Part shown: in pieces, positions 7,601-52,420 of the stretch | Numbering within the stretch: position 1 is the first letter of the stretch | How the letters are laid out: each line of letters opens with the position of its first letter | Source of the DNA: Crassostrea angulata | Taxonomy: Eukaryota | Direction: 5' to 3' | Assembly (NCBI RefSeq): GCF_025612915.1 | Contig: NC_069116.1 | Span: forward strand, 24,579,051-24,643,050 | DNA: 64,000 nt | Made by a program: the position numbers and the translations under genes | Notes under the pieces: model-generated | What the model saw: the letters and a program-made list of their open reading frames with translations, nothing else | Told to the model about the DNA's origin: nothing | Database searches by the model: none

Positions 7601-10600
7601 TTGCTTATGTTCTCCTCATCTTGTTTTGATGCAAGCCCGGTCTTCGCATCTTTCAGCGTTAACATTCAATATACAACTGCAACAAAACTTGAAATTGCTT
7701 CTAATCTATCTTTTTGCCGCTGCCTTTGATGGTTATATCCAAGACGTTTTGGAAGAACACAATTGTCTATCATTTTTCGCTTAAACACTCTCTCAGAAAG
7801 AATTTTCCGTCGTATCAATAGCCAAATGTAAATAAAAGGGGGTAATTTCTATCTCCTCCTTTCATACAAAAACAGTTTTCTCGGTGGCTAAAGTCTGTAG
7901 TTTTTATTGAGAGTCTCGTTGTCAAACTGGATGAACGTTTTTTAATCAAACCTGTGGCTTATCTCAAAGATTTTTCAATTATATTCGTATTTGTCACATT
8001 ACGACCATTAATAATCGCCCAGTTGTTGAATTCCTGTTCGTCGTTTGGAGGGGGTCGATTCATGAGGGCCTCTAAAATCACGATCCAACCAAATCCCTTT
8101 TTGGCATATCACTTCTATTTCTTAGTTTGCTAACATTTTTTGAAACACAGAAGTTTTCCCCTTTTCGTGGACGTGTATTTCAAACAATTCCAAATCCCGC
8201 TGACATTCCGCGTAAACAACTCGTCAAGGATAAATGTCATTTCAATTGGATTTAGAAGTCAAACTTTTACATGATGTGCACGATCTTTGAAATCGGCACC
8301 GATTCTTATTCTACTCTTTATTTGAATTCACGACTTTTAATTCTTTGACAAATCCAACCCTTCCCCTGCCTCCAATAAAATGCATTGTAATATTATCATG
8401 TATGGTATTTTTTTGGTCACTTGAAATATCTGTTTTTGAATTCGAGAACTCGTAAAATATAAATTTTTCAATTCTTTTTGAAAATACGATTTCCCCAGAT
8501 TTGACAAATGTGATAAATGACCACAGATGACCCTTGCATTAGCTATTTTTTTTCTCGAATATAGTATGTTTTCTTGATGGATGGAGATTTAAACACGCTA
8601 ATCGCCGTGCAATGACAAAGGTGGAGAAAGGGGGAGATTCCGGTAAACAGTGGGCTTAGGCGCATAGTGCGGTGATACTTTACTTGATATTGGGCAAGGA
8701 AGAGAGATTAAAATCAACTCTCTAAAATAGAAATACCCCCAGAAGCAGGTCGACAACAAAAATAGAATGAAAAATTTATTTCCTATTATGGTTTATTGTT
8801 TAAAAGATTATAAGACAGTTTTACGCTTTAAAATTCTTTTTTAAATAATAATCTGAAAATATATTGCTGTAAATTCAAATTAATTGATATATTTTTAATT
8901 TATGTGTATTTCAATACTTGTTTTAACAATCCAAGAAACCGTTAATACTCTCCACATCAATTAACGATTACTCAACGTGGCGGCGACTTTTAAGATAATT
9001 TTGAGAAAACTGAAGGTTCGCAGACGACCAAATTAAAATTAAAACTCAATTTTAACCCAAATAGTACCGCCGCGCGTGGATTAATTACATAATTACCTTT
9101 AGATTATCACTTTCGCAGCACGCTTGTTTATTTTTAATCAAAACACCTGTTGTAGTTTGAGACACAATGCTTGTCCATATTAATTAGCACATTACGTGCG
9201 ATAATTGCTCTTTACGGGTACAAGAGAGACCGATACAAATCTAATTGCACACGTGTCAATCTTGTTGCAACTTGGAAAACTACTTATTAGCCGTATGTTG
9301 CCACACCTTTCTTGTGAAACTACCGACGCCATGGTCTGTCATATTTCCTTTCTCAAAATTTCAACTGGTTCTTCAATACTCGCTTTCCCGAAAGAAAAAG
9401 ATTTACAACATAAGAAAGCCTCATATAGCGTCTGTATTTTGCATTTGAAATCCCCCGAACCTGTGCATATTTTTTTCCCATACTTTAACATTATGTTACT
9501 AACAAGCTGAAAAATGAACAACTTTGATAAATGTAAAAGTTAAGTACATTAAAAATGTATGGTTTTTAACATATTTGTAGTTGATTTGTAAAAAAAATAA
9601 ACAAACAAGTAACTGAAGTATATTTAATCAAACACACACACTACATTTTTAACAATGAAAATAAGGCACATATATTTTGGTAAAGATTTATTACCAAATT
9701 ACCCCCCCCCCCCCCTTCCTTCCCTTTTAAAAAATACCCCGTGCACCGAAAACAAAAGCAATAACTGCATAATACCGCTTAGTGAGTTCTAAATATACCC
9801 TGTAAATAAGAGCAGACTGGAGGCTCTTCTATGTGTCAGTTTGCTTTATGGGGGACATGATGAGTAAGATGGCAGATTAATTCCCCTTTATTAGTGCCTT
9901 GTTTACAACTTGACCCCCCAAATGAGTGTAATTTTATAGCATTGATGGGTAATTGTCAGACCAGACGTATAATGAGATTCTAAAGTGTGTAAGGACTAAC
10001 AAACCTGTGGGGATCTAGCTGAATAAGGGCTCGTTGTAAAATGTGTGTCCAGATGTTTTACCTGATTTTCTTATTAGATACCCAATGAAATTACGGTGAA
10101 TAGAAAACAAATTCTTCTATTATATATGGATTTTATCACACCTCTTTTTAGTGCATATTCATCTTGAAACAAGTTAAAATAGATGTATGGGGGACAATTC
10201 TTATCTGGAAATTTACTCGCAAGGGCACATTTAATATATATAAAGATGAACATCAAGACCCTTTTTGCATATCAGATAATTAGAGAATGATTAAAACTGG
10301 CCTATAAGTAAAATCAACTTTTCAAGAGGGCCATAAATTGATCAATGCTTTTATTTGACACATTTTGAAATAATATAAAGAAAACGACATAATCTCCTCG
10401 CAACGTTTTAACATACTGTCAGTTTCTAGTTATGTTTTGTATATGTCAACAAATCAGTATATTTATTACTGATTTATATACCCAGTATTATCCACAGGAT
10501 ATGGATTAAAGAAGGATTTCAAGGCTTTATTTTATCGAAATCCTGATTTGTTCAGTCATAAAATCGTTTCCTTTTCACCGAAAGCGTGAAATTCACACCA

Positions 10601-13600
10601 AGACATGCATTTTGTTTGATTCCACGACTCACATATAAATTATAATGGGAAAACATCATATTGGAATTAATAAAACGCCTAGAGGAATTGATAGCTTCAA
10701 GTTTTTATCTTAAGTTTGAATTCGCTTCTTACATTAAATCAGATAAGTGAAATTTTAACGATTAGATAATACATGCAATATAAAATGTCGTAAATTATTG
10801 CATACACTTGCAGGCTTATCTATATTCCATTATACAAATCATTTTATTTCCCTCACCGTTTCATTCATAGAATGCCATTTTGCGGTGCTTTTAAGTGTGT
10901 TGTTCTAGCTATGCACATTAGATAAAACGCATATAAAACCACAACAAGAGCCAGTAATAAGGCTATGATTTTGCTTTGAAAAACTGCTGTGTTAACTTGT
11001 CCTATCAACAGCAACAGAGGATCAGAAATCATAAAAAAAAATGTCAGGGACTTGACGAGTCGCAGCTGTTGAATCGAACACACGGAACCAATACACCAAA
11101 AAGAAAGAGGATGGACATTTTCTCCATTAAAACCTACAGATTCAATGAGATTTATCGTAAAATGAAAGGAACAAAACGGAAGAGGCAAACTAGCCCCTTT
11201 CCAAAATGAGTCAGGAACATTATCAGTTATTTGAAAACAACAGAAAAATATTCTAACGTCTCTGAAATGTTAATCATACAATTCGAATGAAGAATTCCTC
11301 CATAATCTAAAGAATTGCTCCTTCTATTGAAGAAAATTTATTGACAGTAGATATTCTTTCCCTTTCCTTGATTTTAGAAGTGGGCGGGAGGAGGCAGAGA
11401 CTTTGAAGGTGCTAAATGATATCATTTAATTTCTTTTGTCCTGCTTACGCAGTTCAACATGTAAGTAAATATTTGTATTTACTTTCGCCAAATCCTTTTA
11501 TCTTTTGTAAAGCAAAAACACCGAACAACCAAAAACACACAACAGGTTCGCATAAACCTCAAAGGTAAACAACTGTTTGTATTCATTGTCACAGAACGTA
11601 ACAGAATTACTTTACAGAGAAATTGGTAGCAAACAACATTCATAAGCTGTCGTCGGAGTAGGGAAAACGGACTTGCAAGATTCTACTCAATTATTGTGGT
11701 TTATGAATTTTTTACGTTGGTGTAAATATGAAAATTATAACTTTAAGAGAGTAAAATTCCAAACTTGCAATACAAAATTATGCCATGCATGTGTTGAGTT
11801 TCTCAGAAGAAAGTTTTAGCTTGATAATTCAATAAAAATTAGTTGGGAGCCAAGGAAAAGATAATTTCTGGAGATCACAAAAGTTTACTATTCACAGCAT
11901 ATGAGTATTCCATTTTAAAGTTAAAAAATTGCTTTAACATTAAGAACTGGTGCTACAGCCGAGATAAAGTTACATCTTCTTGTAATATTTTACTTTGTGC
12001 GATTGTTCACATTTAAGCTTGCTTATGCTATGAAATTATATGTACCATAGAAATCATGAATTCATCACCTTGCTTGGAAGGATATGCATACAGTGCACAA
12101 AATTAGTAATCTCTTTGTAGATACAAATGTTCTTTTTCTATGGCACGATACATATGATAATTGTTTTGGCCATAAAACATTGGTTGATGAAAATCTGCAC
12201 ACATATACGTAAATATTTGTCTGATGTCCATAATATTACAAAAGTAGGATTTAAAAAGGAAACACGAAAGAAAAGCTCTACTAAACAGACCAACCAAAGG
12301 CATGTTTCCAAACCTCTTCTTTAAAATGAAAAATATTAAAACAATGGAAAACAATATTTCCATATATTGGCTTTAGCTGCATTTATATCATTTCTGGGAA
12401 TATGGTGACAAAAAAGAATTTTGATGTGATGAAATATGTTTTAATTTGGTCCTACATTTTCTATCATTCAAAATTGCTTGAAGCTATAACGCTTTCCTTT
12501 ATTATATTTAGAAAACACTTATCACTGGGGAAACATAATGTTGGTTCCAATACTGATGGATCATAATTCTCGATCTATTTTAGTGTTGATATTCACAACA
12601 GACAAGATAATTGTAACAAGAAACAAATAACAATATCAAACAAACTTTAAAAGGAAACGATGAAATGTACAGACGGTTGTCATCAATATTTTCCTTAAAG
12701 CCCGGGGGTCTATACAGAGGTTAGGACCAATGGAACGTCACCCGGAAATCTACCGGAAATCTAACCGTATGGATGTCGTAACTGTCTACATTTTTTCATG
12801 TAGTGCAGACTATGTGTAAAGGTAAAAGAAAAGATAAATAGAACTATGTCTATGAAAGATGGCAGCAATAAATTTGTAAAAAATAAAAAAAGAAAAGAAA
12901 AAAAAATGTTCACGTATTGCAAAATTAAGTCAAATACGTCTGTTTTGTAGCGTCAAGGTTACATAAACACGCAACAGAAATGAGGAATTTTTAATCTATG
13001 ATACAATCACATTGTGTTGGCGGTATATATTCCAGTTTGAGGTGGCGTTCTTTATAATTAGACATCTAGAGGGTTTGGTTGAAGATCGATCGTCTTTATC
13101 AATGACCATCTACATAATTGTCACTCCGCTTTTTTCTGCGAATGTAAACTGACACCTGGAAGCCATTTATTATAAACTCATCACACAGGTATTTTCTTCC
13201 CTCAATCTCCCTCTCTCCATGTTCCATCCAATTCATTGTTATTTACTCATCGATCTGAAAAGCGCAGTAGTTTAATCAGTGGTAGTCAAAAATAGGTATT
13301 ATTCTCATCACAGAATATTAGGCAGATTTGTACAGAAATTTGTCATTTAGTAGATTTGTTTTTGAAAAATTTACATGCAATAATATATACCAACCCACAA
13401 TAACATTTTAGGTTTGCATTTAAATTTTGAACACAGTTCATCAAGAGTTCAGTGGATAAAGACGACTTGATTAAATCAATTTTAAATTTGTTAGTATAAC
13501 AAAAATCAAGGTAAATATCGGTTTTTACATATATTTGAATATCTTTAAAATGTCATAGGAATCGGCTATCATACCAGTATTTTGCGCATGACCGGAAGTT

Positions 13601-22837: not shown

Positions 22838-23991
22838 CCTGATTAGTTTCTGAGAAGAAGATTTTTAAAGATTTACTCTATATATATTCCTATGTAAAAC
22901 TTTAACACCCCCCCCCCCCCCCCATGTGGCCTCACCCTACCCCCAAGGGTCATGATTTTCACAACTTTGAATCTACACTACCTGAGGATACTTCCCACAA
23001 GTTTCAGCGTTCCTGGCTGATTAGTTTCTGAGAAGAAGATTTTTAAATATTTACTCTATATATTCCTATGTAAAACTTCGACCCCCCCACACCCCCATTG
23101 TGCCCCACCCTACCCCCAGGGATCATGATTTTCACAACTTTGAATCTACACTACCTGAGGATGCTTCCACACAAGTTTCAGCTTTCCTGGCTGATTAATT
23201 TCTGAGAAGAAGATTTTTAAAGATTTACTATATATATTCCTATGTAAAATTTTAACACCCTCCCCCCCAATGTGGCCTCACCCTACCCCCAGGGATCATG
23301 ATTTTCACAACTATGAATCTACACTACCTGAGGATGCCTCCACACAAGTTTCAGCTTTCCTGGCTGATTAGTTTCTGAGAAGAAGATTTTTAAAGGTTTA
23401 CTCTATATATTCCTTTGTAAAACTTCGACCCCCCATTGTGGCCCCACCCTACCCCCAGGGGTCATGATTTTCACAACTTTGAATCTACACTACCTGAGGA
23501 TGCCTTCACACAAATTTCAGCTTTGCTAGCTGATTAGTTTCTGAGAAGAAGATTTTTAAAGATTTACTCTATATATTCCTATGGTAAACGTCGACCCCCC
23601 ATTGTGGCCCCACCCTACCCCCGGGGGTCATGATTTTCACAACTTTGAATCTACACTACCTGAGGATGCTTCCACACAAGTTTCAGCTTTCCTGGCTGTT
23701 TAGTTTCTGAGAAGAAGATTTTTAAAGATTTACTCTATATATTCCTATGTAAAACTTCGACCCCCCATTGTGGCCCCACCCTACCCCCGGGGGTCATGAA
23801 TTTCACAACTTTGAATCTACACTACCTGAGGATGCTTCCACACAAGTTTCAGCTTTCCTGGCTTTCTGGTTCTTGAGAAGAAGATTTTTGAAAATTTCTC
23901 GAAATTTTTCATTAATTTCTAATTATCTCCCCTTGAAAACGGGTGTGGCCCTTAATTTTCACAACTTTGAATCCCCTTTGCCTAAGGATGA

Positions 23992-24023
<32 letters not shown>

Positions 24024-24045
24024 AGTTCTTGAGAAGATGTTGAAA
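22838..24045. repeat. Satellite-like tandem array, about 6.5 copies of a 165-180 bp unit.
   Basis: The unit ctgattagtttctgagaagaagatttttaaagatttactctatatattcctatgtaaaact…ccccattgtggccccaccctacccccaggg…catgattttcacaactttgaatctacactacctgaggatgcttccacacaagtttcagctttcctgg recurs at about 22841, 23023, 23190, 23353, 23529, 23700 and 23867. The spacing is close to one nucleosome. ORF 23768..24025 is an artefact of it. Confidence 0.85.
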
Positions 24046-24060
24046 ATGTGAAAAGTTTAC

Positions 24061-24104
24061 GGACAGACGGACGGACAGACGGACGGACATACGGACGACA
24101 GACA
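24061..24104. repeat. (GGACAGAC/GGACGGAC)n microsatellite.
   Basis: The sequence is ggacagacggacggacagacggacggacatacggacgacagac. A related stretch caaacggacggactgacggacgcag lies at 46782-46806. Confidence 0.8.
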
Positions 24105-24235: not shown

Positions 24236-24782
24236 TGCTACAAAGGTCCTTTATCGTCCTTCTCATCTACCACAAAGGACCTATATCCTCCTCTCAAACA
24301 ACCATATAGGACCTTCATCCTTCCTCTCCTCAACTGCAACTAACGACCATGGTCCTCCTCTAAAACTACTATATACATGTAGGACCTTAATCCTTCTTCT
24401 CCTCAACTGCAACTAACGACCATGGTCCTCTTCTTTGGCTACTTCAAAGGAAATTGGTTTTTATCAATTGCAACACAGGATGCGAGTCCTCTTCAACTGC
24501 AACAAAGTACTCGGGTCCTCCTCTTCAACTGTTACATAAGACTCGAGTCCTCTTTAACTGCAACTTCGACTTCACCGCAAAAAAGAACCTGGGTCATCCT
24601 CCTCAACTACTACAAATGACATCGATCTTACTCAACTGCAACATATTAGTCGTGTCCTCCTCAACTGTAACTTAGTACTCTTCAACTGCAACATAGGAAC
24701 CGGGTCTTCCTCTTTAACATAGGACATTGGTCCTCCCCTACAACTGCTACAAAGAACTTGAGTCCTCCTCCTCAACTGCTAT
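24236..24782. repeat. Minisatellite, about 14 degenerate copies of a 36-40 bp unit (GGTCCTCCTCTTCAACTGCAACAAAG…).
   Basis: Repeated gtcctcctc…caactgcaac motifs run throughout. The overlapping ORFs 24422..24619 and 24454..24675 are artefacts. Confidence 0.8.
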
Positions 24783-31081: not shown

Positions 31082-31522
31082 ATGGAAAACTTATACAGTA
31101 TTTTGGGCTGCGAGGAATCGGCAACATGTGAAGAAATAAAAAAATGTTATCAGAAGCTTGCATTAAAGACTCACCCAGACAAAGTTGCTTCTCAAAGTAG
31201 GGAAAAGTTGTCGGATGCTAATGACGAATTTGCTAAGATTAGTTTTGCTTGGAAAATTTTAGGCGATGAAGACTTAAGAAACCAGTACGACATAAAGTGG
31301 AAACAAAGATGCATATCACAAGACTGGCCAATTCAAGATGACATTGAAATCGAAGAGTTCGAGATATGTGATACACCCGACTGTGATGATCATGTTTACA
31401 CTTACCCATGTAGATGTGGCGGATTGTATGCACTCTCGGAGACTGATGTTCAAATTAAATTCGACATCGTGTGTTGTGACACATGTTCTCTAAGTGTTCG
31501 GATTTTGTATAATACCAATTAA
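31082..31522 (+). CDS. DNAJC24: DPH4 / DNAJC24-type protein: an N-terminal J domain fused to a CSL-type (DPH-type) zinc finger. It is 146 aa and has no intron.
   Basis: The ORF is intact at 31082..31522. It contains YSILGCEE…KKCYQKLALKTHPDK (HPD motif of the J domain) and AWKILGDEDLRNQYD. It also contains CRCGGLY…CDTCSL (CSL zinc finger). This is collinear with human DNAJC24 (WYSILG…MYHPDK…AWKILGNEETKREYD…CRCGGKY…CDTCSL…LLHYN). A Kozak-like gctaATGG precedes it and an AATAAA follows at 31544-31549. Confidence 0.9.
   Translation: MENLYSILGCEESATCEEIKKCYQKLALKTHPDKVASQSREKLSDANDEFAKISFAWKILGDEDLRNQYDIKWKQRCISQDWPIQDDIEIEEFEICDTPDCDDHVYTYPCRCGGLYALSETDVQIKFDIVCCDTCSLSVRILYNTN

Positions 31523-31617: not shown

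Positions 31618-31686
<69 letters not shown>
31598..31686. repeat. Poly-C tract followed by a (CT)31 microsatellite, immediately 3' of DPH4.
   Basis: Direct reading. ORFs 31554..31763(-) and 31570..31899(+), the RERERE/LSLSLS reads, are artefacts. Confidence 0.95.
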
Positions 31687-35704: not shown

Positions 35705-37597
35705 ATGGACAATTTACTTCCAACTTGCTCTGTTTAATTATTATTGATTTCAATATTATCTGTTTGCCTTAATCACCGATTTAAATATATTAATTAATTT
35801 TTTTAAAAATCAAATTAGATATGGATCGTTTTATAAATTATTTACAAACTTAACAATTGTCAGCTTGTATTTTCAAACAAGACGCCCATGGGCCACATCG
35901 CTCACTTGAACAATAGTTCTTGTATCATTCCGTTTTGAAAATTTTAATTAGATATGAAACTTGTTAAAATATTGTAGAACTCCTAGATTTGACAATACAT
36001 TAAATAAAGGAATCCTACTTTTTTGACATCATAAGCTACGGTTCGTTATTTTGTTTTTGGTTCGATTCAATTAAACATATATCAGCGTTAATATTTCTCA
36101 TTGTAAATAGAAAAACTTATCTTTAACTTGTACATATAGATTCTTTTACTTAAGAATAACAAAAAAAAAAATGTTATGTATTCTTTTCAAATTAATTATT
36201 TAGAGGATGAAAAACTTGCAGGAAACATGGAAAAACTTGTTGGCAAAACTGTACACAAAGAATACTTGATGACATTATTGGTTTACATGCTAATACAGTA
36301 ACTAAAAACGATTTCGAAAATAATTTGAAAAAGTATTTCAAATATAAATTTATCAGAGACATTAAGAAAAAAGAAATGGAAAATTGCCATTCTATAGGTA
36401 ATTATTAATTACACAAAATCTAAAAACAAGCTTGAAATTAAAACATGCTTAAATTTTTCCATTTCCAAGAAGCTTCTTTTTTTTTTTACTCAATTAGGAA
36501 TAAGTGCCCAAAAAATTACAGACAGAGGTTGTCAGATATCGTAACCTTATTATTCCAAGGGATAAAAGATATTGTATCAATTTTTATACTGTAGATGAAA
36601 ATTAACATCATTTACAACTACGAAGTGAATATTGTTCAGTTTTCACTTTTTAAAAACGCATGCATTTCTTATAAAATTCTTAAACAACAAGAATGAACAA
36701 AAGAAAATGTATGTACTGACTATATCTGTAACTATTGTCTGTATCATCAGGTCTCATTGACCCTCTGATATAATTTTTATTATATATAATTTTACTGTAA
36801 TATATCATTTCTAAAACTTATTAAAAAACAGTTCTTTTTGTTGAAATGCTTTTTACTACATTTCTCGACTAAGTCCCTGTTTAACTTGTGTCAAGCGTTA
36901 ACAATATTCAATAAATTATACACGTTAAGAAGTTAGGTACATATTAACACCATTCGATGCCACGAGGAACTTTGGGTGATTTACTAACAAATAACTTTTA
37001 CGTAATCACATGAAATTCAATTAAGAAAGCTTTTTGATGCCCCCTTTACTCAATTACTGTTCGGATAACGGATTAGTGCTGCTTTTGTTTAGTCCACGCT
37101 ATACCCTCCCCCCTTTCGGGTATGAGGTCCCCGACAGGGAAATTAGTGTGTCTTCTTTTTAACTTTAATATTGTATACCTATCGGTATACCTTGCCTTGA
37201 CCATGAGGAATTTTTGTATCAAAGCCCAGCGCGTCACTTTTTCTGGACGCTTCCTCAATAACAGACGTATTCTTAATATCTCAACTTTTGGTCATATTTT
37301 ACAGGTCATCGTTAATTATAAATTTCACCCCCCAATTCCAATATGACGAGTTGGTGAATGTCTCCTCAAAAATCCCAATGAAGAGCAGACCAATAAACTA
37401 CATGTACAGTACCAATAACAACGTTATTTTTACAAGATAAACGATAGGATAGGATTCACGCACGATATGATAGGATTAACGCACGATAGGATAGGATTAA
37501 CGCACGGTAGAACAGCATACACGCACGATAGGAAAGGATAATTAAACGATGTTCATGATAAACGTATAATCGCTTTTCACGATCTTCACAAATAAAC

Positions 37598-38823
37598 CAT
37601 CTTCTTCGCTAGCCAAGGGTTTTCGGTCCACTTTGCTACCCGTAAACCCTTGGCGGATTTCATTACGAAATCTCAGTGATGTGGTGGCGCTATCTAGCGA
37701 GCAACTTGAGTTGCACCCCTTGCATGTTTACATTTTAATCAAATTAAACAACGGGTTATATACACACTATAGCATTAATACAACTTAAAACATGTTGACT
37801 ACCGAACGTCGGAACATTATTAACGATGCCATTAAATACGAACCTGTGGAAAGCACGAAATGTTTCTTCATAGTGTTTTGTAAGGACCGGAGGACCGGGA
37901 GTGAGAAAGTCGCCGATTTATACGAAAGCTTTCATGCCATAAAACCAGGTATCGTTGTCGTGAATATTGCGGACCAAAGAAATTAAATAAAACAAAGCTC
38001 ATTGAACCTTTAAAAGCAACTAGAGGTACTGTGAGCAAGCTCACAATTGATACCCCCCGCTAAGAAAAATTTAATATTTAAACATTTTGAATCATTGGTA
38101 TACTGAGCCGGATTTTTTCCGAATTTTTTTTTCCACACATTTTTTTTTCCAAAAAAAAATTCATCGGGGCAGGCCATTTTCAGAGAGACGGGGATGAGAG
38201 TCTAAAAATAGTTTTATGTGGCCTGATACAGGCAAGCTTTGTGTCATATTTAAGCTTCTAATATTTCCATTAATACAAGACATGACACAGACAGAATTTA
38301 GCATTTTTAAAACAATGACCTTGAACTTCCTCAATTGACCTTGGGTCAAGGTCATGACACACCCTTAGGTCATAAGCAATCTTTGTGTGAAGTAAAAACT
38401 TCCAATGTTTCCCCATTAGAAAGATATGGACCGAACACAAATTTTGCACTTTTTCTGCCAGTGACCTTGACCTTTCCCAAATGACCTTGGGTCAAGGTCA
38501 GGACACACCCTTAGGTCATAAGCAATCTTTCTGTGAAGTAAGAACATTTACTGCTTCTCTTTAAGGAAGATATAGACCGGACACGAATTTTGCATTTTTT
38601 CTGCCAGTGACCTTGACCTTGCCCGAATGACCTTGGGTCAAGGTCATGACACACCCTTCGGTCATAAGCAATCTTTGTGTGAGGTAAGAACTTCCAATGT
38701 TTCTCCATAAGAAAGATATGAACCGGACACGAATTTTGCATTTTTTCTGCCAGTTTTCGTAATGAAATCCGCCATTGTTTATGGGGAGCAAAGTGGACCG
38801 AGAACCCTTGGCTAGCGAAGATG
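37598..38823. mobile_element. Non-autonomous DNA transposon, MULE-like. It is 1226 bp with about 75 bp TIRs, a 9-bp TSD CAAATAAAC, and an internal 3x ~150 bp tandem repeat.
   Basis: The left TIR is catcttcttcgctagccaagggttttcggtccactttgctacccgtaaacccttggcggatttcattacgaaa. Its reverse complement occurs at 38750-38823 with a few mismatches. Direct CAAATAAAC copies lie at 37589-37597 and 38824-38832. The internal ORF 37792..37986 (64 aa) has no recognisable homology. Confidence 0.65.
38330..38760. repeat. Three tandem copies of a ~150 bp unit, each beginning with the palindrome TGACCTTGGGTCAAGGTCA, inside the MULE-like element.
   Basis: Direct comparison of 38330-38470, 38470-38620 and 38620-38760. 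Confidence 0.7.
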
Positions 38824-39114
38824 CAAATAAACTGATACTGGCAGAATTTGAGAAAAAAACACGTACAAATAAAGATTTACGTGGAATTTCTTTTAAGTAA
38901 CAATTGCCGAGTTGTTAACCACCGCTGCATCATTTATAGAATGCATAAATATGACCAGTAATTTTTTTTAACTAAAATAATTAGCTTAAATGATCAATTT
39001 TTGTGTATCGTTAACACTGTTTTCATTACCGAACACCCTAGCCGATCGCCGCGAATATTTCAGCCCGAGATCAAATCACACGGAAAATAGCGGGTTCAAT
39101 TATAAAAATCAAAC

Positions 39115-40489: not shown

Positions 40490-40640
40490 TTGAACTATAA
40501 ACCTGATAGGATTAATGCATGATAAGATAGGATTAACGCACGATAGAACCGTATACACGCTCGATAGGATATGATTAACGCACGATAGAACAGTATACAC
40601 GAACGATACAATAGGATTGATACACGATACGATAGGATAG
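40490..40640. repeat. Short tandem repeats (GATAGGATTAACGCACGATAGAAC…) in the retrotransposon leader. A homologous block occurs at 37440-37560.
   Basis: Compare acgataggataggattaacgcacgataggataggattaacgcacggtagaacagcatacacgcacgatagg at 37440 with gataggattaacgcacgatagaaccgtatacacgctcgataggatatgattaacgcacgatagaacagtatacacgaacg at 40520. Confidence 0.6.
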
Positions 40641-40789: not shown

Positions 40790-41040
40790 TGAAAACAACA
40801 CATACGAGGAACAAAATACAGTAAACTCTGCAACCTCAAATAAAAACAACATACCCGATGAACAAAATACTGAAAACTCTGCAACTTTAAATGAAAACAA
40901 CCAATTCGAGGAACAAAATACAGAAATCGCTGCAGCCTCAAGTGAAAAAAACACGTCACACGAGCAGGATACAGAAAAACCTGCAGCTTCAAGTAAAAAC
41001 AACACATCCCACGTACAAAATATAGAAAACTCTACCAAAA
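40790..41040 (+). repeat. About 4.5 tandem copies of a ~57 bp unit in the retrotransposon leader upstream of gag. It is open in one plus-strand frame: …EEQNTVNSATSNKNNIPDEQNTENSATLNENNQFEEQNTEIAAASSEKNTSHEQDTEKPAASSKNN….
   Basis: Direct repeat comparison. The minus-strand ORFs 40727..41038 and 40732..41007 are artefacts. Confidence 0.6.
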
Positions 41041-50559: not shown

Positions 50560-52420
50560 ATAATAACGTCTACCAAAATTGTAAATTTCATATCCCCTGG
50601 GAATGTAATTGTTAATGCATATAATGTTTAAAAATCTTCTCTACTCCCATATATCTGTAAGAAAAATTAAACTCATAATTATTTTACCAGGAAGCCTTCT
50701 ACCAAAATTTTATATTTCATGTCTACCGTAGTGAAGGTTTTAAATTTAGGGCGGGGCCAAAATAGGTCACATAGTGATAATGCATAGAATATTTAAAAAT
50801 CGTTTTATCTACTCACCTACATCTGTAAGAAATTCTATAACTCTCACTTGTGAGATCACAATACATCTGACACTCTTGGATTTTTCTCTAGGATCCCTCA
50901 TCAATTTAGTCCAGAATGATATAAATAGAACTTAATTTAAAAGTGATGTTTCCTCTTGCTTACTTATTGGACAAAATTGTTTTTAAAAAATAAAAAATAA
51001 AACAAATTAATGAAGTGTTTGACTACTTTACCATGGATCAGACAATATTTTTCAAGCATCGGACAGCTAAACAGGAGATATTAAATTTTTAAAAAAAATT
51101 AATTCTTTCAACAGCTATTTAGAATTGTTTTTATTTAAATCCTTGAATCAACATCAGGAATTCAGACGTGCTTCTTTTAAAAGGAATATTTATCACGAGG
51201 AGTTCTTTATCGTGCCACCACCTTTTTATTTAAATCCTTGAATCAGCAGTCAGGAATTTGTACTAGTGCTTCTTTTTCAAGGAATATTATGTCATGAGGA
51301 ATTCTTTATCGTGCCACCACCTACAGGAACTTTGGATTAAAAAGACAGTATCCATGAAACTCGAATCAAAAGTGCTCTAAGGAAAATGTTTATATCAATT
51401 ATTTTTTATTTTATTTTACTATACATTTAAAGTATATCACAAGGAAAGGGTACATAATTTATTTAATTATTTAAAAAAAATCATGCATTGAAAACTGTCC
51501 GAAGCGTGGTTAATGCGAGTCGGATCCATGGTGAAATGAAATTGAGCTTAAATGACCTGATCATTAATTGTTCAATTTCTTAGACCTCTTATAATCGAAT
51601 TTCGTTTCAAAACTTCTCTCTATTTTAGGCAGAGGGCGCATTTTCACTAATTCACAATCGCACAACATCCAAATACTGCTTTTTTGTGAAACCTTTGTAA
51701 CTAAATTTTCAAAAATGGCGTATTTGACGTCATTTTACGACGCTTATATTGCTTATATTTTTGCCAATTTGACTGTTAAAGTCTTAATCATAATAAAAAG
51801 ATCATTAGCTCTAATTCAAAGATTTCTATAATGATAACGTTCATTAGTTCTAATTCAAAGATATCAATAATGAATGAATGATAAAGTTCATTATTTCTAA
51901 TTCAGGGATATACGAAACAACACGTGAGCGCATGCACGATTCGTTGTATATTTTCAACCAAAGTTGTCCGATCAGAGGTATATGTTAGATACATGGTTAA
52001 CGTATCCTTAACGTAATTATTTATGTAGACCAGGAAGCCTTCTACCAAAATTGTATATTTCATGTACCCCAGATTAAGGGTTATGACTCTAGGGCGGGGC
52101 CAAAATGGTAATCTATAGGAAAACTGAATTCCTAATTATGTAGACCGGGAAACCTTCTATATGTGACATAATTGTCCCACGGGGAAGGGGTTTGGACTCG
52201 CTTAGCAGTCATGTAGTGATAATGGATTTAATATTTGAAAATCTTTACATCTCTGATGCTGAAAAAAATGACTGCATATTATAAAAAAAAATTATGTCCC
52301 ACAAGGTAGGAGTTTTGAATCTTGGGCGGGACTAAAACAGTCATTCTGTGTTTAGGGTAGGGATTCTTTCTGCAGCGTTAAGCCAAAATGGTCATATAGT
52401 GCTACTGTAGCCTATATAAT
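50560..52420. repeat. Loose cluster of a short interspersed repeat family built on …accaggaagccttctaccaaaattgtaWatttcatgt…ttagggcggggccaaaatRggtca…atagtgataatgcatagaatatttaaaaatc….
   Basis: Copies lie at about 50560-50640, 50690-50830, 52030-52110 and 52180-52250. Diverged copies lie at 52300-52420. Each holds a GC-box-like GGGCGGGGCC core. Confidence 0.5.
51137..51320. repeat. Tandem duplication, 2 x ~92 bp.
   Basis: The unit tttatttaaatccttgaatcaRcaKcaggaatt…ggaatattNNtcaYgaggaRttctttatcgtgccaccacc appears twice. Confidence 0.75.

Follow-up and report, generated by a model that had tools for sequence, protein, structure and literature searches.

Non-autonomous Helentron-associated elements, the HINEs, are defined by a modular structure, in which a 5' subterminal inverted repeat (subTIR) with a complementary inverted repeat (IR) and a GTCY microsatellite is followed by central repeats resembling satellite DNA (satDNA) and by a 3' subTIR with a palindrome, and they enter TT or T-rich targets without producing a target site duplication (TSD) (PMC4067079; PMC7492417). 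The prototype is DINE-1 of Drosophila (PMC4067079), and Cg_HINE elements were described in Crassostrea gigas (Vojvoda Zeljko et al., 2020; PMC7492417). Two bivalve families, pearl of C. virginica (Gaffney, 2003) and DTC84 of Donax trunculus, are known as tandem-repeat-containing "MITEs" (miniature inverted-repeat transposable elements), and the palindrome in the core repeat of DTC84 has been proposed as a hotspot for change in array length (PMC3879986). Mutator-like elements (MULEs), on the other side, have TSDs of 8-11 bp and terminal inverted repeats (TIRs) of 14-500 bp across groups; TSDs of 9 bp are known from several animal groups, and TIRs of 74 bp from one of these, Spectre (PMC6446971). 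Here we report on a 64,000-nucleotide stretch of the Crassostrea angulata genome (contig NC_069116.1, 24,579,051 to 24,643,050), hereafter the window, and within it on the feature at 37589-38832, which consists of a 1,226-bp element (37598-38823) and two 9-bp TSD copies. The original prediction, made from the letters of the window, had read this feature as a single MULE-like transposon with its own palindrome-headed tandem array. Comparison with other copies makes it very probable that the 1,226 bp are two transposons, one nested in the other, namely a non-autonomous TIR transposon and, inside it, a truncated HINE (Table 1).

The outer element is a TIR DNA transposon of the non-autonomous kind, with a 9-bp TSD on its flanks. 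Reading of 37400-39000 together with repeat finders confirmed the perfect direct repeat CAAATAAAC at both flanks. Its length is exactly 9 bp because the bases just outside the two copies differ; the copies adjoin symmetric termini (CATCTTC...GAAGATG), and the chance probability of a 9/9 match is about 9e-6 at this base composition. An 8-bp TSD of the hAT or P type plus one chance base was rejected as less parsimonious, since it would need asymmetric termini. The TIRs, predicted at about 75 bp, measure 76 and 72 nt and are identical in 66/76 alignment columns (86.8%), with one 3-bp (CTT) and one 1-bp indel. No further copy of either TIR core is present in the 64-kb window, where none is expected by chance. 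The left TIR contains its own 11+3-bp hairpin at 37612-37654 (GCCAAGGGTTT.CGG ... CCG.AAACCCTTGGC) as well as a second small hairpin, and these are mirrored in the right TIR. Folded as single-stranded DNA, the TIR gave -18.3 kcal/mol (z -6.8). With regard to coding capacity, the expected absence of a transposase gene held: the element has no open reading frame (ORF) longer than 76 aa and no Pfam match above threshold, and an Rfam scan of the whole 64-kb window returned no family. A 64-aa ORF at 37792-37986 was considered as a captured gene fragment and rejected on the lack of a Pfam match. It is not a gene, because its products are 63-67% identical between copies against a DNA identity of 84-89%, and indels between the copies break the frame.

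Seven further copies of the TIR family, 76-89% identical, were found in public assemblies. Three of them are metagenome contigs (L001-L003) retrieved with the 64-aa ORF, and four are Logan contigs (L012-L015) retrieved with a profile of the frame reading through the left TIR. In the first three, the left TIR and the next 346 bp of the interior match the window at a DNA identity of 83.5-88.9%, as far as exactly 38019, and the right TIR of L001 ends at the same ...GCTAGCGAAGATG as that of the window before running into an unrelated flank. The other four show left ends of the family (76-85% identical), each after an unrelated flank, as in GTGACCGCA/CATCTTCGCCAGG of L013 or TTAAAATCT/CATCATCACTAGCC of L014 (slashes here and below mark junctions), and the stem sequence of the TIR hairpin is kept in L013-L015. 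Typical copies are about 0.9 kb long with TIRs of about 80-81 bp. A second TSD measurement was not obtained from any of the seven contigs, all of which stop or start inside the element. Of what the original prediction had proposed to look for, further copies were found, and an autonomous partner was not. One metagenome source of these relatives, PRJEB12083, is a survey of UK river water and effluent, and it is plausible that its oyster DNA derived from food.

One of the Logan contigs, L013, also carries an uninterrupted homologous site, which means that the outer element is an insertion. At L013 279-517 the homologues of the window left flank, of one target copy and of the right flank lie in one piece. 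A construct of the two joined flanks aligned with it in a single BLAST high-scoring segment pair across the junction (71.5% identity, E 6e-27). The 50 bp of the right flank scored 23 against L013, where shuffles scored 3.4 ± 2.6 on average and a score of 23 was reached by 0/2000 shuffles and by 0/1728 other 50-mers of the window. The construct with one TSD copy scored 135, that with none 131 and that with two 121. L013 was rejected as the orthologous locus, its upstream NHL-repeat exon being without counterpart in the window; what it carries is a copy of a dispersed flank repeat, paralogous or heterologous to that of the window. The empty site is thus of the paralogous type. An exact look-up of ten flanking and junction ORFs returned neither a filled nor an empty allele of this locus from the collection.

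The flank itself is repetitive. A 21-bp minisatellite (ACGATAGGATAGGATTAACGC, 4.7 copies, 37441-37539) immediately precedes the element; together with some 100 bp around it, it forms a dispersed repeat that is also seen in L013 279-517. The TIR element was therefore inserted into another repeat. The minisatellite recurs about 3 kb downstream, at 40504-40639, as an array with a 42-bp period. L013 contains the 3' end of an NHL-repeat (TRIM-like) coding exon (1-341), a separate small inverted-repeat element (683-898; GGATGTGCGGCCATTTT ... AAGATGGCCGCACATTCC) and, some 470 bp downstream from the empty site, a left end of a TIR-family copy.

The interior of the window copy differs from that of its relatives. 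L001-L003 have no tandem array, and beyond the position of 38019 they share a segment of about 330 bp, called "B", that runs into the right TIR; the window sequence there is entirely different. A protein search with an ORF of the array repeat gave eight products, and the contigs of these were then examined. The repeat of about 146 bp was found without these TIRs in L004, L006, L010 and L011 and, in diverged form, in L005. In four of these contigs (L004, L005, L006 and L011), the array adjoins a (GTCC/GTCT)n microsatellite, beyond which lies a module of subTIR and IR. The 5' end of L011 reads TATACCCCCCGC..(loop)..GGGGGGGTATA, that is, a subterminal repeat and its complementary IR, next to (GTCY)n and then the array. 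At the other end, L010 runs from the array through a spacer to CTTAGCGGGGGGTATCAATTGTGAGCTTGCTCACAGTACCTCTAG and into a T-rich flank beginning TTTTATATG. The minus strand of the window reads the same CTTAGCGGGGGGTATCAATTGTGAGCTTGCTCACAGTACCTCTAG from 38020; its 52 bp at 38069-38018 agree with the 3' end of L010 at 98% identity, and beyond them the two flanks differ. In L004, L005, L006, L010 and L011 alike, the array has one orientation with respect to the microsatellite and the 3' end, and window positions 38078-38727 are homologous at 72% to the array-side region of L006.

The window copy thus has 3.0 to about 3.6 satDNA-like units of 146 bp in fixed orientation, followed by a 3' subTIR and a short palindrome near the 3' terminus, as in HINEs. 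The 5' subTIR, the IR and the (GTCY)n microsatellite are missing here, and the array adjoins the right TIR instead; because this module is absent from the window and present in the sister copies L011, L004, L005 and L006, the nested HINE is a 5'-truncated member. By this architecture, 38020-38754 is a fragment of a HINE, and the array, the predicted hairpin and the subTIR are parts of a nested, 5'-truncated element of the Helentron type and not a module of the TIR element. In C. gigas, the repeat cluster CL6 comprises 598 arrays with about 4 monomers each, the monomer having 146-147 bp and a GC content of 39.6%; its carrier is Cg_HINE_6, and it corresponds to Helitron-N18_CGi / Helitron-27_CGi of Repbase (PMC7492417). 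The window units are 146 bp long, which fits CL6, with a GC content of 40-44%, and the nested repeat is probably CL6 / Cg_HINE_6, likened to it by monomer length and GC content.

The original prediction had instead made the array a built-in module of the TIR element, where it might serve as a portable cluster of nuclear-receptor binding sites. The TSD and the TIRs on which that description was built are real, no part of the unit is better conserved than the palindrome, and all nine matches to YCAAGGTCA in the 64-kb window lie inside the array, with 0.83 expected. However, three other family members cover the interior without any array, the array occurs elsewhere with HINE ends and without these TIRs, and a complete HINE 3' terminus stands exactly where the family homology stops. 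A single element of this kind is therefore very improbable, and what survives of it is the non-autonomous TIR transposon with its 9-bp TSD, now a member of a family and with an uninterrupted homologous site in L013.

The junctions bear on how the two elements came together. On the left, 38019 is the last position homologous to the TIR family, and 38020 is the first of the HINE 3' terminus. The family consensus at the insertion point reads GGTTAT/TGCTTTT on the minus strand, the break falling within TT, and this junction would fit a genuine Helentron integration. On the right, the array normally continues ...CTGCCAGT/GACCTTGACC, with GACC as the first bases past CTGCCAGT, and the right TIR of the family reads ...CACCGAGT/TTTCA, whereas the window has CTGCCAGTTTTCG. 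The window copy lacks the HINE 5' module, segment B (in L001 some 330 bp long) and, of the TIR of about 81 bp, roughly the innermost 9 bp. The order of events that we infer as the simplest has two steps, a HINE insertion and then a microhomology-mediated deletion. The outer element, with TIRs of about 80 bp, would have integrated at CAAATAAAC and duplicated 9 bp. A HINE, moving by rolling-circle transposition, may then have entered it at TT in the minus orientation, bringing its 146-bp central repeats, 3' subTIR and terminal hairpin. A later single deletion via the AGT microhomology would have removed the HINE 5' module (subTIR, IR, GTCY microsatellite and some repeat units) and, from the outer element, about 330 bp as well as the innermost part of the right TIR; it is by this deletion that the array would now adjoin the right TIR. 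Among the very few copies accessible, the CTGCCAGTTTTCG junction was not met a second time.

The same parts could also have been assembled in one step, if the HINE fragment was gained by template switching or filler-DNA capture during repair of a double-strand gap left by excision of the TIR element, in a Pack-MULE-like manner. The right junction, with only 3 bp of microhomology, is typical of template switching, segment B has been replaced and not interrupted, and events of such a cut-and-replace kind have been considered for the repeats of oysters (PMC7492417). On the other hand, the left junction coincides to the base both with a true HINE 3' terminus and with the TT of the host consensus, which is expected for a Helentron integration and would be chance under random template switching. 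We consider one-step capture unlikely for this reason, and retain HINE insertion followed by deletion.

Several points weigh against our account of the locus. Capture of a HINE piece by template switching in gap repair would give an identical sequence, and the HINE 5' junction is lost, so that only the 3' junction shows the TT target. Only three other copies (L001-L003) cover the internal region. The 9-bp TSD is a single case, from the only complete copy with both flanks, and the L013 empty site, being diverged, sets the length of the duplication only within about 6-11 bp. The collections scanned gave no autonomous partner or transposase for these TIRs. The likeness to CL6, as said, is one of length and composition.

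Table 1. Features of the composite element and its target site in the window (positions from the first letter of the window; TRF, Tandem Repeats Finder).
Feature	Position	Strand	Basis or remark
Left TSD copy CAAATAAAC	37589..37597	.	exactly 9 bp; uninterrupted site in L013 aligns ungapped across a single copy
Left TIR, 76 nt	37598..37673	+	repeat finders; terminus also in L012, L013, L014, L015
Internal region "A", non-coding, with decayed 64-aa ORF	37674..38019	+	common to L001, L002, L003
Intact 3' end by comparison, HINE	38020..38064	-	98% identity over 52 bp to independent copy L010
HINE terminal tail, 10 nt	38020-38029	-	beyond the palindrome
HINE 3' palindrome TGTGAGC-AA-GCTCACA (minus strand TGTGAGC-TT-GCTCACA)	38030-38045	-	predicted hairpin
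HINE 3' subTIR GCGGGGGGTAT	38050-38060	-	reverse complement of the L011 5' subTIR TATACCCCCCGC
Variable HINE spacer with poly(T)/poly(A) runs	38065..38227	-	between array and 3' terminal module; absent from TIR-family copies
Degenerate partial fourth unit	38228..38315	-	nhmmer match, model positions 57-138, E 2e-4
Three 146-bp HINE central repeats	38316..38753	-	each with palindrome TGACCTTGGGTCAAGGTCA and three YCAAGGTCA motifs
Putative deletion junction between array and right TIR, 3-bp microhomology AGT	38752..38754	.	comparison with array and TIR-family continuations
Right TIR, 72 nt kept of about 81	38752..38823	-	91.8% identity to right end of L001
Right TSD copy CAAATAAAC	38824..38832	.	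repeat finders

With regard to the superfamily of the outer element, Mutator-like is our best guess, which we hold somewhat more readily than its negation. From the 9-bp length of the TSD we infer that a Mutator-like transposase was most likely the mobiliser. A length in the MULE range (8-11 bp, typically 9) was measured on one complete copy, and the empty site of L013 is compatible with about 6-11 bp; the TIRs are long, at 72-76 nt in the window and about 81 nt in the family, a feature that is not specific to MULEs. The outer element may instead belong to another superfamily, Merlin or an unclassified "DNA9" family of Repbase, an alternative that we regard as possible and put forward tentatively. 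Merlin is reportedly associated with TSDs of 8-9 bp, with which the present one would be compatible; a single TSD was measured, no superfamily was matched by the terminal motif CATCTTC, and the collections scanned gave no transposase. The TIR 21-mer CCTTGGCGGATTTCATTAYGA met only bare chance matches of 21-22 bp (L007, L008, L009) in JGI metagenomes and GTDB genomes and nothing in the IMG/VR viral collection, and the TIR was not found in the supplements of the curated bivalve transposable elements (PMC10294476), of the C. gigas HINE study (PMC7492417) or of the C. gigas satellitome (PMC8268682). Merlin does occur in bivalves, but it is rare among the molluscs surveyed, in which MULEs were present in all genomes examined and the curated library holds 39 MULE against 3 Merlin families (PMC10294476). 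Moreover, a 9-bp TSD with TIRs of about 80 bp lies within the range of MULEs (PMC6446971).

Compared with the described systems, the inner element resembles Cg_HINE of C. gigas in the 5' subTIR, complementary IR and GTCY-type microsatellite of its sister copies (L011, L004, L005 and L006), in the short array of satDNA-like central repeats of about 146 bp, in the 3' subTIR followed by a palindrome, and in the TT or T-rich target, which is read here at the 3' junction only (PMC7492417). It differs in that the window copy is 5'-truncated and lies inside another transposon, and in that the variable spacer stands between the array and the 3' module and not after the microsatellite. DINE-1 of Drosophila likewise combines subTIRs, an IR, a microsatellite, central tandem repeats, a 3' stem-loop and a TT target (PMC4067079), but it belongs to a different phylum and shows no sequence similarity. 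The modular order of pearl and DTC84, with L, one to five core repeats, an ACGG/GTCY microsatellite and R, is similar (PMC3879986), and as there each core repeat has a conserved palindrome within a segment of low variability. The repeat sequence is unrelated to theirs, and the palindrome of DTC84 is TTGTCCGGACAA at the end of the unit, in contrast to TGACCTTGGGTCAAGGTCA here. The outer element shares with non-autonomous MULEs the 9-bp TSD, the TIRs of about 80 bp, the lack of coding capacity and a heterogeneous interior that accepts foreign DNA; it differs in that its TIRs are short next to those of plant MULEs and in that each has its own strong hairpin. A HINE nested in a TIR element is an ordinary arrangement in oysters. 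The element as a whole is ordinary too: a TIR transposon of the non-autonomous kind, probably a MULE, with a truncated HINE inside it, in an oyster genome where both abound.

The array was detected by TRF at 38316-38754 with a period of 146, 3.0 copies and 87% matches. The 19-nt palindrome TGACCTTGGGTCAAGGTCA occurs exactly three times, at 38336, 38482 and 38628, with a spacing of 146 bp, and nowhere else in the window. The three predicted units of about 150 bp are thus three 146-bp units with the palindrome in each; that a unit starts with it is a choice of phase, the palindrome lying at offset 21 in the TRF phase. In a profile alignment of 17 units from six sources, the 19 columns of the palindrome showed the highest conservation of any stretch in the unit (0.935, where the mean is 0.776), and this conservation holds in L005, which is only about 70% identical overall. 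The palindrome is a conserved box of the HINE central repeat and not a module of the TIR element. Its likeness to an AGGTCA-type nuclear-receptor repeat, noted in the original prediction, is one of sequence. The motif YCAAGGTCA, present three times per unit, resembles the extended half-sites of SF-1/ERR/FTZ-F1-type nuclear receptors. The palindrome gave no matches in the paper full texts searched.

In the three supplements named above, the array repeat was looked for as well as the TIR, and only a related GGTCAAGGTCA motif came up. It is present in two C. gigas satellites of the PMC8268682 supplement, CgiSat21 (441 bp = 3 × 147) and CgiSat10: each third of CgiSat21 carries TTGACCTTGA...AAGGTCAAGGTCA motifs, and CgiSat10 ends in CCAAATGACCTTGACCTT. 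The motif also occurs in a second array type of L005. A GGTCA-repeat box seems to be a recurring theme in the Helentron-borne repeats of oysters. L005 (ENA ERZ26168041, a 21-kb contig) contains at 8900-10750 two different HINE-like arrays side by side. The diverged array of about 146 bp (10142-10705) ends in a microsatellite and a subTIR, and an array of about 105 bp (about 9400-9950), rich in AAGGTCAAGGTCA, has a GACA microsatellite of its own at its end; another unit stands alone at 8936-9044.

Other repeats are found in the window. An array of the Cg170/CL1 type at 22918-23897 (166 bp × 5.8, TRF score 1529) matches a C. gigas CL1/Cg170 array (PMC7492417 supplement) at 90.4% identity across 407 columns, which by itself places the window in Crassostrea (Magallana). 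The array is followed by a (GGAC/AGAC)n microsatellite near 24059-24095; window positions 22918-24100 are a second HINE, of the Cg_HINE_1/2 type. Further short tandem arrays are located at 40792-41033 (51 bp × 4.7), 24286-24642 (73/78 bp × 2) and 51128-51322 (99 bp × 2). An intronless ORF of 146 aa at 31082-31522 (+) encodes DnaJ and CSL zinc-finger domains (DPH4/DNAJC24-like) and is followed by a (CT)31 microsatellite at 31624-31686. The DnaJ protein is found exactly in Logan assemblies (7 contigs), and its cluster at 90% identity has 183 members, pointing to a species that is highly polymorphic and has been sequenced often.

Finally, the practical importance of the composite is small, but it illustrates that what is plausibly annotated as a "MITE with internal tandem repeats" can in fact consist of two transposons of different classes, one inside the other. 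Bivalve genomes, with their ubiquitous Helentron-borne satDNA-like arrays, set this trap repeatedly. A more far-reaching view would be that the HINE array, bracketed by functional TIRs, has been handed to a cut-and-paste transposase with its nine palindromic SF-1/ERR-type half-sites, and that the box is conserved across diverged HINE families (CgiSat21, L005) by binding of the Helentron Rep protein or of host nuclear receptors and not by mere ancestry; we offer this only as a long shot. If it were true, the satDNA-like repeats of a rolling-circle element could spread by a second mechanism, and if the composite were mobile, satellite-like repeats would have a concrete route from one transposition system to another. 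As to how the Helentron arrays of oysters are maintained or recognised, the strongly conserved GGTCAAGGTCA-type palindrome offers a modest lead.

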